DNA of 4,742 nt from a virus (Duplodnaviria; Heunggongvirae; Uroviricota; Caudoviricetes). The notes below the pieces were generated by a model. The model was not told the origin of the DNA and did no database searches. It worked only from the letters and a program-made list of their open reading frames with translations. Shown here piece after piece: positions 384 through 2,360 of this stretch (within the stretch, counting starts at the first letter, position 1; each line of letters opens with the position of its first letter). A program made the translations under genes and the position numbers. The DNA lies in the IMG/VR virus record IMGVR_UViG_2740892258_000009. The stretch is one strand, 5' to 3'.

Positions 384-899
384 GTGATCGCTGAATTAAC
401 GGCAGCAATGACGGCTATTCGTGAAACAGCCCAGATTGCAAAACTAATGAACGAGGCAAAAACTCAAGCTGAAGTAAATGCGGCTATTGGTGAGCTGAAC
501 TCAAAGCTTGCGTCTATTCAGCGCGAATGCGTGTCTCTCGTTGAACTGGTGGGCTCTTATCAAGAAATAAATGCTTCTCTCAAAGCTAAAATTGCAGAAT
601 TCGAAAACTTTGAGGCTCAGACGGAAGGCTATATCCTTAACCAACTTGAGTCGGGTACTTTTGTATACTCGAAGGAGGTAATCGTGAACGGTGGCAGCAT
701 AACCATGCATCTTTGCCCAAAATGTTTTGGACAAAAGATAGTATCGATACTTCAACCATTCCCGGTTAGCGAAGATGAGCTTTTTCATAAAAGCAGGTGC
801 CTCCACTGTGAAAATAAGTTTCTGATGAATAAAAATCCGGATTACGTATCGCCTCCATCCATTGAGGAGTTGTCCAGAAAACTTAACGGCAATCTGTAG
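384..899 (+). CDS. Hypothetical small protein with an N-terminal coiled coil and a C-terminal four-cysteine zinc ribbon (171 aa from GTG 384; 163 aa from ATG 408)
   Basis: This is the 3' two-thirds of track ORF 120..899. From MTAIRETAQIAKLMNEAKTQAEVNAAIGELNSKLASIQRE.. the sequence is heptad-like and Ala/Glu/Lys/Gln-rich. It is followed by CPKC (nt 714-725), 24 residues, then CLHC (nt 798-809). GTG 384 has AAGAG 8 nt upstream; ATG 408 has no SD. An intrinsic terminator follows 40 nt after the stop. The part of the track ORF upstream of 384 is Arg/Trp/His-rich and looks non-coding. Confidence 0.75.
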   Translation: MIAELTAAMTAIRETAQIAKLMNEAKTQAEVNAAIGELNSKLASIQRECVSLVELVGSYQEINASLKAKIAEFENFEAQTEGYILNQLESGTFVYSKEVIVNGGSITMHLCPKCFGQKIVSILQPFPVSEDELFHKSRCLHCENKFLMNKNPDYVSPPSIEELSRKLNGNL

Positions 900-900
900 A

Positions 901-926
901 TTACTACTGTTGTGGATATCCAGATT
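901..926. repeat. Right arm of the 26-bp inverted repeat bracketing the zinc-ribbon gene
   Basis: TTACTACTGTTGTGGATATCCAGATT begins 2 nt after the TAG stop (897-899). It is the reverse complement of 347-372 at 22/26 positions. GTT flanks both outer ends (344-346 and 927-929). Confidence 0.8.
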
Positions 927-937
927 GTTAAAGAGCT
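925..937 (-). promoter_or_regulatory. boxA-like (NusB/NusE-type antitermination) element on the minus strand
   Basis: The minus strand reads AGCTCTTTAACAA, matching 12/13 of the E. coli rrn-type boxA consensus TGCTCTTTAACAA as I remember it. It lies about 110 nt left of the OL-like palindrome, so it would sit in a leftward early transcript. It is preceded on that strand by the imperfect hairpin 956-939. Confidence 0.4.
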
Positions 938-938
938 A

Positions 939-961
939 AGCGTCCTGTAGGGCGCTTTTTT
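939..961 (+). terminator. Rho-independent terminator of the zinc-ribbon gene
   Basis: AGCGTCC-TGTA-GGGCGCT forms a 7-bp stem (one G-U pair) with a 4-nt loop, followed by a run of six T (956-961). On the minus strand the G-U becomes a C-A mismatch, so the structure favours the plus strand. Confidence 0.8.
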
Positions 962-1046
962 GTTGCTAACGAATCATCCGGTCATTCATACGCCACCGGC
1001 GGCTACTTCGTGGGCGTCCTGCCTGTCCGTGATAGCTTACATTATG

Positions 1047-1065
1047 TTGCTACTTAAAGTAGCAA
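1047..1065. promoter_or_regulatory. OL-type operator (perfect palindrome)
   Basis: TTGCTACTTAAAGTAGCAA is a perfect 19-bp palindrome. Its 17-bp core TGCTACTTAAAGTAGCA matches TGCTATTTTAAGTAGCA (3295-3311) at 15/17 positions and TTCTATTTTAAGTAGTT (3272-3288) at 12/17. Its position beyond the end of the repressor operon matches lambda OL. Possible half-sites are GGCTACTT at 1001-1008 and AAAGTAG at 1079-1085. Confidence 0.6.
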
Positions 1066-1069
1066 AAAT

Positions 1070-1098
1070 CAACAACAAAAAGTAGATATTTGTTGTTG
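1070..1098. repeat. 10-bp perfect inverted repeat CAACAACAAA / TTTGTTGTTG with a 9-nt spacer
   Basis: Arms are 1070-1079 and 1089-1098. The spacer AAGTAGATA contains an operator half-site whose centre lies 23 bp from the OL palindrome centre. The CAACAACAA core also occurs at 329-336 and 362-369. Confidence 0.5.
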
Positions 1099-1117
1099 TC
1101 TATGATTTTTCTATAAT
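1090..1117 (+). promoter_or_regulatory. Candidate sigma70 promoter firing rightward, antisense to the ParA-like gene 3' end
   Basis: Consensus -10 TATAAT at 1112-1117, with TTGTTG at 1090-1095 and a 16-bp spacer. The DNA is AT-rich, so chance matches are common. Confidence 0.3.
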
Positions 1118-1244
1118 TAATTGAAAGTTAAATGTTTTTGCTGATTTACTATGCTGTAAACTGAAAATATCGCACGAAGTTGGAGTAGGTATTGAGCATA
1201 GTGAATTATGAGGAGGGAGTTTTTTATGAGATTAATCAGGGAGA

Positions 1245-1276
1245 AAGAAGAGTAAAGCCCGGTTATGCGGCCGGGC
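1245..1276 (-). terminator. Probable intrinsic terminator of the repressor / ParA-like operon
   Basis: GC stem GCCCGG (1257-1262) / CCGGGC (1271-1276) with an 8-nt loop, 7 nt after the TAA stop (1286-1284). On the minus strand it is followed by UUUACUCUUCUUUCUC. The U tract is interrupted. Confidence 0.5.
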
Positions 1277-1283
1277 ACATGCA

Positions 1284-2360
1284 TTACTTTGTAAGTTCTA
1301 GAACTCGTTGAGCCAGCCCTTTAAATTGTTCGTTAAAGGCGTCTCTGCTTGATTTCATTGTATTTAAGGCATGCCCAAATTGCCCTGAATCGCGAATTTG
1401 CTGATCACTGATGGAGAAAACAGGTGTCGCTAGTTGTTGGCTTATTGCGATTAATGAGTTGAAATCGGAAATATGCGCAAGATCATAGGCTGATAAATCT
1501 CCACTGACTGTTGTTTTGTTAATTGCATGTTGCACTTTATCTCGTGGAATTATGCAGGTAATTTTTTCTAGATTTGGCACTAAGATCGAATCAACAGCAT
1601 CACGGATAGCTGCCATCCATTTTTCGAAAGATTTTACAGGTGCTCCTTTACGCGGCCTGTATCTCTGCTGAATCATACCTAGAAACTGCGGTGCATTTTT
1701 AATTGATTGTGAAGAGTTACCATCATTATTTTCTTTAAATAATGCTAATTCTTTGTGCCAGCGAGGTATATTTTTTGAGAGAGAGCGAATTGCTTGCCAG
1801 CAAAAAAAGTCTGGAGCTACAGGTACGATAAAATAGTCACTTGACATGAGAACTACTTCATTTAAACCTCCAACATTAGGGCTGAGATCATAAAGAATGT
1901 AATCAATATTATTCTTCATGGCGATTAGCTGTAATATTTTTGGCAGGTTCCCTGGTATATTTCTTGTAGCAGGAATACCAGCAGCAATTTTTAGAGAAAC
2001 ACTTATCTGTGAATCTAAGTCCGAAACATCTAAATGTCCGGGAAGAAGCAGAAGGTTTTCATGCAGTGTAGGGTGTAATTTTCCCGTTTCTTTTTCAAGG
2101 TATGCTTCAGGTTGTCCGCCATTAATCAAATATTCTACAATAGGTCCAAGAGTTAAGTTATCTCTGCTAGAATAAAAAGAATCTAAACCCTCATCAATCT
2201 TTTCATAGCCAAGAACCATTCCTGTTAGATTACATTGCGAATCAAGGTCAACCATCAATACTTTCTTGCCTTCATCCGCAAGTGCCCATCCAAGATTGAA
2301 GGTTGTTGTGGTTTTACTTACCCCACCTTTATGATTAAAAAAACAAATTGATTTTGTCAT
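1284..2360 (-). CDS. Orphan ParA/MinD-family P-loop ATPase (deviant Walker A), 358 aa
   Basis: Track ORF 1284..2360. The N-terminus MTKSICFFNHKGGVSKTTTTFNLG carries the KGGxxKT deviant Walker A with the signature lysine. VLMVDLDSQCNLT resembles the A'/switch motif and DYILYDLSPNVG resembles Walker B. AAGGA lies 9 nt upstream of the ATG. There is no N-terminal HTH extension, no recognisable effector domain and no adjacent ParB-like ORF. The gene is visibly more AT-rich than the genes on the replication side. Confidence 0.9.
   Translation of the reverse strand: MTKSICFFNHKGGVSKTTTTFNLGWALADEGKKVLMVDLDSQCNLTGMVLGYEKIDEGLDSFYSSRDNLTLGPIVEYLINGGQPEAYLEKETGKLHPTLHENLLLLPGHLDVSDLDSQISVSLKIAAGIPATRNIPGNLPKILQLIAMKNNIDYILYDLSPNVGGLNEVVLMSSDYFIVPVAPDFFCWQAIRSLSKNIPRWHKELALFKENNDGNSSQSIKNAPQFLGMIQQRYRPRKGAPVKSFEKWMAAIRDAVDSILVPNLEKITCIIPRDKVQHAINKTTVSGDLSAYDLAHISDFNSLIAISQQLATPVFSISDQQIRDSGQFGHALNTMKSSRDAFNEQFKGLAQRVLELTK

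Follow-up and report, generated by a model that had tools for sequence, protein, structure and literature searches.

The stretch of DNA analyzed here, which we refer to as the window, comprises 4,742 nucleotides of the Caudoviricetes record IMGVR_UViG_2740892258_000009 from the IMG/VR virus collection. We consider it likely that the window represents the immunity region of a lambdoid prophage of the SfV/e14 type, integrated at a tRNA-Arg gene, and that a cargo slot lies on either side of its left operator and leftward early promoter (OL and pL). The two slots would be independent of each other, and each would contain a stand-alone accessory gene whose probable role is to protect the lysogen. 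The slot left of OL holds a zinc-ribbon gene of the Rip1 family (384-899, plus strand; 171 amino acids [aa], GTG start). The slot between OL and the repressor gene cI holds a gene for an orphan ATPase of the ParA/MinD superfamily (1284-2360, minus strand; 358 aa). An earlier note, made from the sequence of this stretch, had proposed that these two convergent genes form a single lysogeny-expressed module. We found instead that the Rip1-family gene and the ATPase gene assort independently, as judged from co-occurrence counts, recombination breakpoints, and cassette replacement.

Among phage records, a homologue of the zinc-ribbon gene was found in 55 and a homologue of the ATPase gene in 50, with no overlap between the two sets. 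With a broader Rip1 profile, built to include HkaP, JBD30 gp30, and HK446 Rip1, the ATPase gene was found in 1 of the 78 viral loci of the Rip1 family that had 1.6 kb or more of downstream sequence. Conversely, a Rip1 gene was present in 2 of 155 ATPase loci with enough flanking sequence, and both of the ATPases concerned are 100% identical to that of the window. In the 5- to 10-kb flanks of 91 ATPase loci from genome collections, no Rip1-family open reading frame (ORF) was detected, even at E ≤ 10. Because homologues of the two genes co-occur only where the ATPase is 100% identical to the window's, the proposal of one functional module is refuted. The accompanying suggestion that the zinc-ribbon protein serves as the partner of the ParA-like ATPase also fails: identical ATPases occur beside other cassettes, and the Rip1 family is described in a review as self-sufficient (PMC13434031).

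Breakpoints in other phages and prophages tell the same story of separate movement. A recombination breakpoint lies between the two genes at approximately position 1026: phage PhiR29_1 shares positions 1-1026 and 3609 onward with the window and carries, between these same flanks, another immunity block that lacks the ATPase gene. Positions 1027-3608, spanning OL, the ATPase gene, cI, the right operator (OR), and cro, therefore form an exchangeable immunity block. The O157:H7 SS52 prophage shares only positions 276-936 with the window (93.6% identity), where they sit beside a racR-type immunity region. This homology to an unrelated prophage delimits a self-contained Rip1 cassette (276-936, plus strand) that moves alone; in keeping with a stand-alone gene, the sequences that adjoin Rip1 genes on the right, compared over 1.6 kb, form 20 clusters.

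The slot left of OL is hypervariable. In IMG/VR prophages whose ATPase-cI block is 100% identical to that of the window, positions 369-921 or 314-966 are replaced by one of four other types of cassette, which brings to at least five the cassettes found beside this block (within 314-966; loci L178, L181, L182, L184, and L185). The alternatives encode a 167-aa protein, a 164-aa protein with two transmembrane segments, a 144-aa protein, and an 81-aa protein accompanied by convergent zinc-finger ORFs; a ClpX-like zinc-finger ORF is found in one alternative cassette, distinct from the cassette of the two-transmembrane protein. We regard these genes as candidate defence genes. Four cassette types lie between conserved flanks, with CCCCAACAAC repeats on the left and a boxA-like site and a terminator on the right. 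The cassette type of L184 and L185 replaces 314-966, removing both conserved flanks.

By full-length profile and by predicted fold, the zinc-ribbon protein is a new, diverged member of the Rip1 family, a known single-gene defence, at about 26 to 29% identity to the characterized members. A family profile built from 24 homologues matched chain 9oox_L of PDB entry 9oox ("ring interacting pore 1"; HK446 Rip1 bound to the T6 small terminase) with E = 2e-19, across profile positions 5-151 of 169 and chain residues 15-160 of 164. The AlphaFold 2 (AF2) model, with a predicted local distance difference test score (pLDDT) of 85, has two long N-terminal helices (residues 2-24 and 28-79) followed by a beta/zinc-ribbon domain (84-147) with a CxxC...CxxC arrangement. 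When this model was compared with the PDB by Foldseek, just two matches were significant, both to 9oox chains (E = 8e-6, probability 1.0), and the target-normalized TM-score against 9oox_M was 0.72. In PHROGs the protein falls into phrog_1244 (E = 9e-60), a family listed as of unknown function. A PADLOC scan of it returned nothing meaningful, with a 2023 library that is older than both Rip1 and GiPD474, the defence ATPase considered below.

The 24 homologues, all from Enterobacterales, have in common a conserved N-terminal half that is helical. Seven residues (C111, C114, C139, C142, S121, L123, and P125) are invariant in them, and the four cysteines together with an S-I-L-Q-P motif are also present in HK446 Rip1, HK620 HkaP, and JBD30 gp30. 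We infer that the four cysteines and the S-I-L-Q motif define the Rip1 family. In Pseudomonas phages of the JBD30/DMS3/D3112 type, a tblastn search identified a 29% identical homologue; in JBD30, gp30 is encoded on the opposite strand, with terL on one side and, on the other, a gene labelled "DNA binding protein" that we take to be terS. The original Rip1 gene likewise sits between terS and terL, according to a review (PMC13434031, citing Patel et al. 2026, Nature 651:1060). The same review describes Rip1 as non-toxic by itself and as a self-sufficient single-protein defence. It reports that a Rip1 12-mer forms around the 11-mer ring of the small terminase, or around the portal, whereupon the N-terminal amphipathic helices make a pore and the infected cell lyses prematurely (PMC13434031).

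The second slot holds an ATPase with a complete complement of ParA-type catalytic residues. The protein matches Pfam AAA_31 (E = 2e-29; AAA_31/CbiA) and has a deviant Walker A motif, KGGVSKT, at residues 10-16, while D37, D39, and D157, the Walker A' and B aspartates, are invariant. Its closest fold is that of the uncharacterized protein DIP2308 (3pg5), followed by Soj/ParA, and every NCBIfam match lay far under its cut-off. More than 5,000 hits make this a very large family, conserved at 60 to 65% identity over the full length across Gamma-, Beta-, Alpha-, and Deltaproteobacteria. Its members are found directly after a prophage repressor, on the same strand, in Salmonella Gifsy-like prophages, in a Pseudomonas capeferrum prophage, and in Morganella. 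In the Salmonella phages ST160 and SE1, the homologue follows c2 and a DUF3024 gene. Cro/CI-type helix-turn-helix (HTH) proteins account for 20 of the 58 distinct upstream neighbours, and 13 carry an S24 domain. The DUF3024 gene, which lies between repressor and ATPase in ST160 (L003, 3521-3862) and in the Morganella prophage (L014, 9412-9750), matches PADLOC candidate PDC-S43 (E = 2e-30).

In the window, the repressor gene upstream of the ATPase gene is cI (2531-3235, minus strand; HTH_3 and Peptidase_S24 domains), and our terminator scan found no terminator-like site between the cI stop codon and the ATPase start. In phage lambda, the rexAB genes are expressed with cI in the lysogen and have an exclusion function. 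By analogy with rexAB, the ATPase gene is probably transcribed with cI in the lysogen. Both accessory genes are very probably expressed from the prophage, and their expression during lysogeny is plausible.

A validated single-gene defence occupies the same position in Salmonella prophages. GiPD474 is a ParA/MinD-like protein with an AAA_31 domain, encoded by one gene in the immunity region of Gifsy-1, a prophage of S. Typhimurium 4/74 (Bosma et al. 2025, PMC12724215). It is active in E. coli against T4, FO1, and Alf5, and in E. coli K-12 it is sufficient to reduce the plating of T4 and Alf5 by approximately 5 logs (PMC12724215). We located gipd474 in IMG/VR contigs by scanning with published primer sequence; its product has 361 aa, and the gene lies directly after the Gifsy repressor. 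The alignment between the window ATPase and GiPD474 is collinear (352 columns, residues 8-342 of 358, E = 1e-13). Moreover, gipd474 and P0010, a 73% identical relative of the window ATPase, are clean allelic replacements of each other, with shared flanks and the same Gifsy-type repressor (L004, 4830-6107, versus L260, 5543-6885). Such a replacement is good evidence of analogous cargo, not of identical function. P0010 itself was considered as a candidate for the published GiPD474 and rejected: the published primers have no match at P0010 loci, and the true gene encodes a distant, different ParA-like protein. Judged from its genomic position and architecture, the most likely role of the window ATPase is that of a single-gene antiphage protein, analogous to GiPD474.

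An alternative is that the ATPase serves the prophage itself, for example through positioning or segregation of phage DNA or through modulation of the lysis-lysogeny decision, and not defence. The complete ParA-type active site, the Soj/ParA-like fold, and the tight linkage to repressor genes all fit this idea, as does the label "regulatory protein" given to the Pf1 and ST160 homologues in older annotations. We nonetheless consider it unlikely. No conserved ParB-like neighbour was found among the 91 ATPase homologue loci, and the window ATPase, flanked by cI and the Rip1 cassette, has neither a ParB nor a centromere-like partner. When we examined the window ATPase as a ParA/Soj partition system, the Walker motifs were in place, but that identification failed on two of three features because there is no ParB-like neighbour and because the prophage is integrated, by an integrase, at tRNA-Arg. 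The gene is also dispensable and exchangeable, being missing from PhiR29_1 and replaced by gipd474 in Gifsy prophages, and its slot elsewhere holds known defence cargo, including the DUF3024 gene that matches PDC-S43.

Distant relatives of the ATPase point to a further alternative, in which the window protein would be what remains of a toxin-antitoxin-like ParA-HEPN pair, or a solo offshoot of one, and would act as the regulator or antitoxin of an effector encoded elsewhere. In 25 of 80 distant homologues (37 to 41% identity), a RiboL-PSP-HEPN gene with an intact RxxxxH motif lies directly downstream, often with overlapping stop and start codons. These pairs, which come from Chloroflexota, cyanobacteria, and Acidobacteriota (loci L058 and L064-L092, about 10001-11800) and have no PADLOC match, make up an apparent two-gene ParA-HEPN system. 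Dyads of ParA/Soj and HEPN proteins have been predicted to be toxin-antitoxin or conflict systems (Anantharaman et al. 2013, PMC3710099). Against such an origin for the window protein, the window contains no HEPN ORF, and HEPN genes were confined to the clade at ≤41% identity, with none in the proteobacterial clade (≥59%), which is conserved over its full length, at 60 to 65% identity, as a solo gene. We therefore regard a remnant of this kind as very improbable.

We give hardly any credence to the idea of one lysogeny-expressed system in which the coiled-coil zinc-ribbon protein would be the adaptor or DNA-binding factor of the ATPase. In its favour, the genes are adjacent and are found together in 105 E. 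coli genomes, partners are usual for ParA ATPases, and the distant relatives do have a conserved partner gene. Against it, that partner is the RiboL-PSP HEPN protein and not a zinc-ribbon protein, Rip1 is described as working alone (PMC13434031), identical ATPases are paired with other cassettes, the genes converge on separate terminators with a recombination breakpoint between them, and both the viral locus counts and the absence of Rip1-family ORFs within 10 kb of 91 ATPase loci separate the two.

Several observations weigh against our preferred reading, that of two independent slots with a Rip1-family protein in one and a GiPD474-like defence ATPase in the other. In a survey of 5,426 complete E. 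coli genomes, the zinc-ribbon gene was present in 650, the ATPase gene in 109 (all at ≥99% identity), and the whole window in 105. The unequal totals of 650 and 109 speak for independence. On the other side, the Rip1 cassette accompanies the ATPase gene in 105 of the 109 genomes that carry it. This high joint frequency in finished genomes is consistent with the sampling of one successful prophage lineage; on distribution alone, a lineage-specific interaction of the two proteins could still exist. The window ATPase is only 22% identical to GiPD474 and falls outside that family's cut-off of ≥70% identity (≥70% coverage is also asked for in the paper), and its PADLOC match (PDC-M28B) is confined to the P-loop. 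The N-terminal amphipathicity of the zinc-ribbon protein is moderate, with a maximum hydrophobic moment (muH) of 0.44 at residues 8-25 that was reached by 2.5% of shuffles. Finally, a scan of positions 1-1300 for consensus sigma-70 promoters returned no promoter upstream of the Rip1 gene or at pL.

Given two independent slots, the locus is ordinary lambdoid architecture: each slot borders on the operator, and the two genes are neighbours for that reason alone. Slot 1 would be a cassette of approximately 660 bp with its own terminator, left of pL and on the opposite strand, encoding the Rip1-family protein. By homology, this protein would be inert in the lysogen until a superinfecting phage makes ring-shaped small terminase or portal. 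Rip1 monomers would then assemble around the ring, their N-terminal amphipathic helices would form a membrane pore, and the cell would die before progeny are made. In slot 2, the orphan ATPase gene, lying between cI and OL on the cI strand and presumably co-transcribed with cI, would by analogy have a single-gene antiphage role. The earlier note had also predicted that leftward early transcription would run antisense through the zinc-ribbon gene, and this placement is borne out, in that the gene lies antisense to the leftward early operon. Rip1 genes are likewise antisense to a lytic operon in three unrelated phage backbones (HK446 Rip1, HK620 HkaP, and JBD30 gp30), so that convergent transcription is a plausible way to turn a Rip1 gene down. 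Early pL transcription after induction may thus dampen the Rip1 gene and limit self-targeting, and by analogy with these phages it is plausible that such antisense silencing spares the phage's own terminase or portal.

More tentatively, and with slightly less than even confidence, we propose two extensions. The ATPase family may be a distinct single-protein antiphage system that descended from, or represents the sensor half of, the ParA-RiboL-PSP-HEPN system. Separately, the site left of OL, with its conserved flanks, terminator, and boxA-like site, may serve as an expression platform into which one defence cassette or another can be plugged.

The remaining descriptive claims of the earlier note fared well. 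Both ORFs have the same coordinates in the RefSeq annotation of IHE3034, and the accessory nature of both genes, neither of which is part of the lambdoid core, is supported. Both are also lower in guanine-plus-cytosine content than the replication side, as had been stated (0.42-0.44 for the zinc-ribbon gene and 0.36-0.39 for the ATPase gene, versus 0.49-0.52 for positions 3600-4650). The convergence region had been put at approximately 320 bp, which is about right: the spacer between the ORFs measures 384 bp (900-1283), with about 300 bp from hairpin to hairpin. All of the elements ascribed to it are present, namely, two terminator-like hairpins (the one on the ATPase side being weaker), an exact copy of the operator, the CAACAACAAA inverted repeat, and an exact boxA-like GCTCTTTAACAA.

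The OL operator is the palindrome CTACTTAAAGTAG at 1050-1062, an exact match to the consensus CTAYTTWARRTAG. The only other exact CTAYTTWARRTAG matches in the window, 3274-3286 and 3297-3309, both lie between cI and cro. The operator search gave 9 strand-hits versus 1.5 expected, a number reached by 0 of 200 shuffles. The operator sequence at OL is thus common to OR of the same phage, which marks the region as a lambdoid OL/pL control region. A degenerate third operator, CTACCATAGGTAG (two mismatches; 3229-3241), overlaps the RefSeq cI start codon at 3235, and this overlap suggests an OR3-like autoregulation of cI. From the sequence we propose a pL promoter at 1044-1072 on the minus strand, with TTGATT (1072-1067) and CAACAT (1049-1044) separated by a 17-nucleotide (nt) spacer that contains the operator. 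The assignment draws on a layout shared with the proposed rightward promoter (pR), in which TTGCAT (3287-3292) and CATCAT (3310-3315) are separated by a 17-nt spacer holding the operator at 3297-3309.

A terminator-like site closes each convergent gene. That of the Rip1 cassette (938-967, plus strand), a good intrinsic terminator, consists of a hairpin with an 8-bp stem and a 4-nt loop (938-957) followed by the T-run TTTTTTG; the hairpin is kept to the right of four of the five cassette types and is missing from the L184/L185 type. Directly after the ATPase stop codon, a second terminator-like hairpin (1247-1276, minus strand; hairpin 1276-1257, then TTTACTCTTC) has a weak T-tail and a fold that is not separable from shuffles (z = -1.3). 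Between OL and this hairpin lies the CAACAACAAA inverted repeat, with arms at 1064-1081 and 1093-1110. The CAACAACAAA motif is over-represented in the window (9 hits versus 1.95 expected; 0 of 200 shuffles). On the minus strand the repeat forms a CAACAACAAA/TTTGTTGTTG hairpin followed by U5 (1062-1110), whose end coincides with the -35 element of the proposed pL and whose RNA fold (z = -4.35) was reached by 0 of 200 shuffles. Because of this fold, the U5 tract, and the position of its end, the hairpin is possibly a tIMM-like second terminator or insulator of the cI-ATPase transcript; HK620 carries an annotated tIMM that overlaps OL3. The boxA-like GCTCTTTAACAA at 925-936 lies on the minus strand, within the leftward transcript, and we take it to be akin to the rrn boxA consensus TGCTCTTTAACAA.

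Around the Rip1 ORF lies a 26-nt inverted repeat whose arms are 85% complementary; it brackets the gene from 12 nt before the start codon to 2 nt after the stop. The left arm (347-372) contains a TCCCCAACAACAA repeat and the cassette-swap breakpoint 368/369, and the right arm (901-926) contains the swap breakpoint 921/922. The predicted duplex (-30.1 kcal/mol) was reached by 0 of 300 shuffles. No covariation of the repeat with cassette type was seen, in that cross-duplex energies were no weaker than cognate ones, and we therefore make no claim of covariation. The repeat could serve in 5'-3' pairing of the mRNA, produce a loop-out in the pL transcript, or be a recombination scar.

The wider context agrees with an integrated prophage. 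Positions 1-3839 of the window are 100% identical to E. coli IHE3034, whose counterpart is a lambdoid prophage with an integrase, adjoining a tRNA-Arg gene, and with the leftward order int, yfdT, yfdR, yfdQ, and yfdP. The gene order in the window is the Rip1-family gene, the ParA-like gene, cI, a cro-like gene (3342-3605, plus strand), a ymfL/cII-like gene, a DUF4222 gene, and an O-like replication gene. Compared with IHE3034, positions 3839-4075 show a 208-bp deletion within the ymfL/cII-like gene, which is frameshifted, and the window has a 56-bp tandem duplication (3963-4018 and 4019-4074); the difference in this gene may reflect true variation or an error of assembly. The sequence CATCAAAATCTGACG is repeated three times in tandem at approximately 4700-4742, within the O-like replication gene; the copies look like iterons, and the array is cut off by the end of the window. 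At the other end, a match to the small RNA STnc100 (RF02076 in Rfam) covers the whole model length at 49-272 on the minus strand, with 40.3 bits versus a gathering score of 47 (E = 2e-6). On the leftward transcript this match is downstream of the Rip1 cassette, and it overlaps a RefSeq "frameshifted hypothetical" pseudogene.

These results have consequences for annotation. The product listed as a "hypothetical protein" in 650 of 5,426 complete E. coli genomes, O157:H7 among them, can be given a name, that of a Rip1-family abortive-infection protein. The very widespread "ParA family protein" encoded in the immunity regions of prophages turns into a concrete candidate for defence, one for which the same slot offers a validated analogue. 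The recognition that two independently shuffled cargo sites flank OL/pL in lambdoid phages helps to predict where new defence genes will be found. The new two-component system that had been proposed does not exist; the annotation value remains.

Among known systems, the window most resembles HK446 and HK620 in plan, with an accessory gene (here the ATPase gene) after cI and Rip1 antisense to the left of pL. HK446 has the order cI, a different accessory gene in the post-cI position, pL, N, and then Rip1 on the opposite strand, whereas the window has no N gene between pL and the cassette. The window protein shares full-length sequence and fold homology and a similar size (164 to 171 aa) with HK446 Rip1 and the Rip1 of Pseudomonas aeruginosa Mu-like prophages. 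As in HK446 Rip1, the N-terminal half is helical, the C-terminal zinc-ribbon domain has all four cysteines, and the gene is a stand-alone prophage gene left of pL on the strand opposite the lytic operon. It differs in being only approximately 26% identical to HK446 Rip1 (29% to JBD30 gp30) and in belonging to a distinct enterobacterial subfamily (phrog_1244). HK620 HkaP is homologous to the window protein at 28% identity and carries the annotation of a putative superinfection exclusion protein; its gene is also antisense within the pL operon but lies farther from pL, past N and hkaQ.

The ATPase shares with ParA/Soj the P-loop fold, the signature lysine, and the Walker A' and B aspartates. Unlike ParA/Soj, it has no ParB, centromere, or extrachromosomal replicon, and it carries approximately 100 extra residues as insertions and a C-terminal extension, with DIP2308 (3pg5) as its best PDB match. 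Its position, between cI and OL on the cI strand, is equivalent to that of lambda rexA-rexB, from which it differs in being a single gene and not two and in having no sequence or fold similarity to them. A further parallel is GiPD474, likewise a ParA/MinD-like AAA_31 ATPase of approximately 360 aa with a deviant Walker A motif, encoded by a single gene directly after a prophage repressor; the motif itself differs, reading KGGVGKT in GiPD474 and KGGVSKT in the window ATPase.

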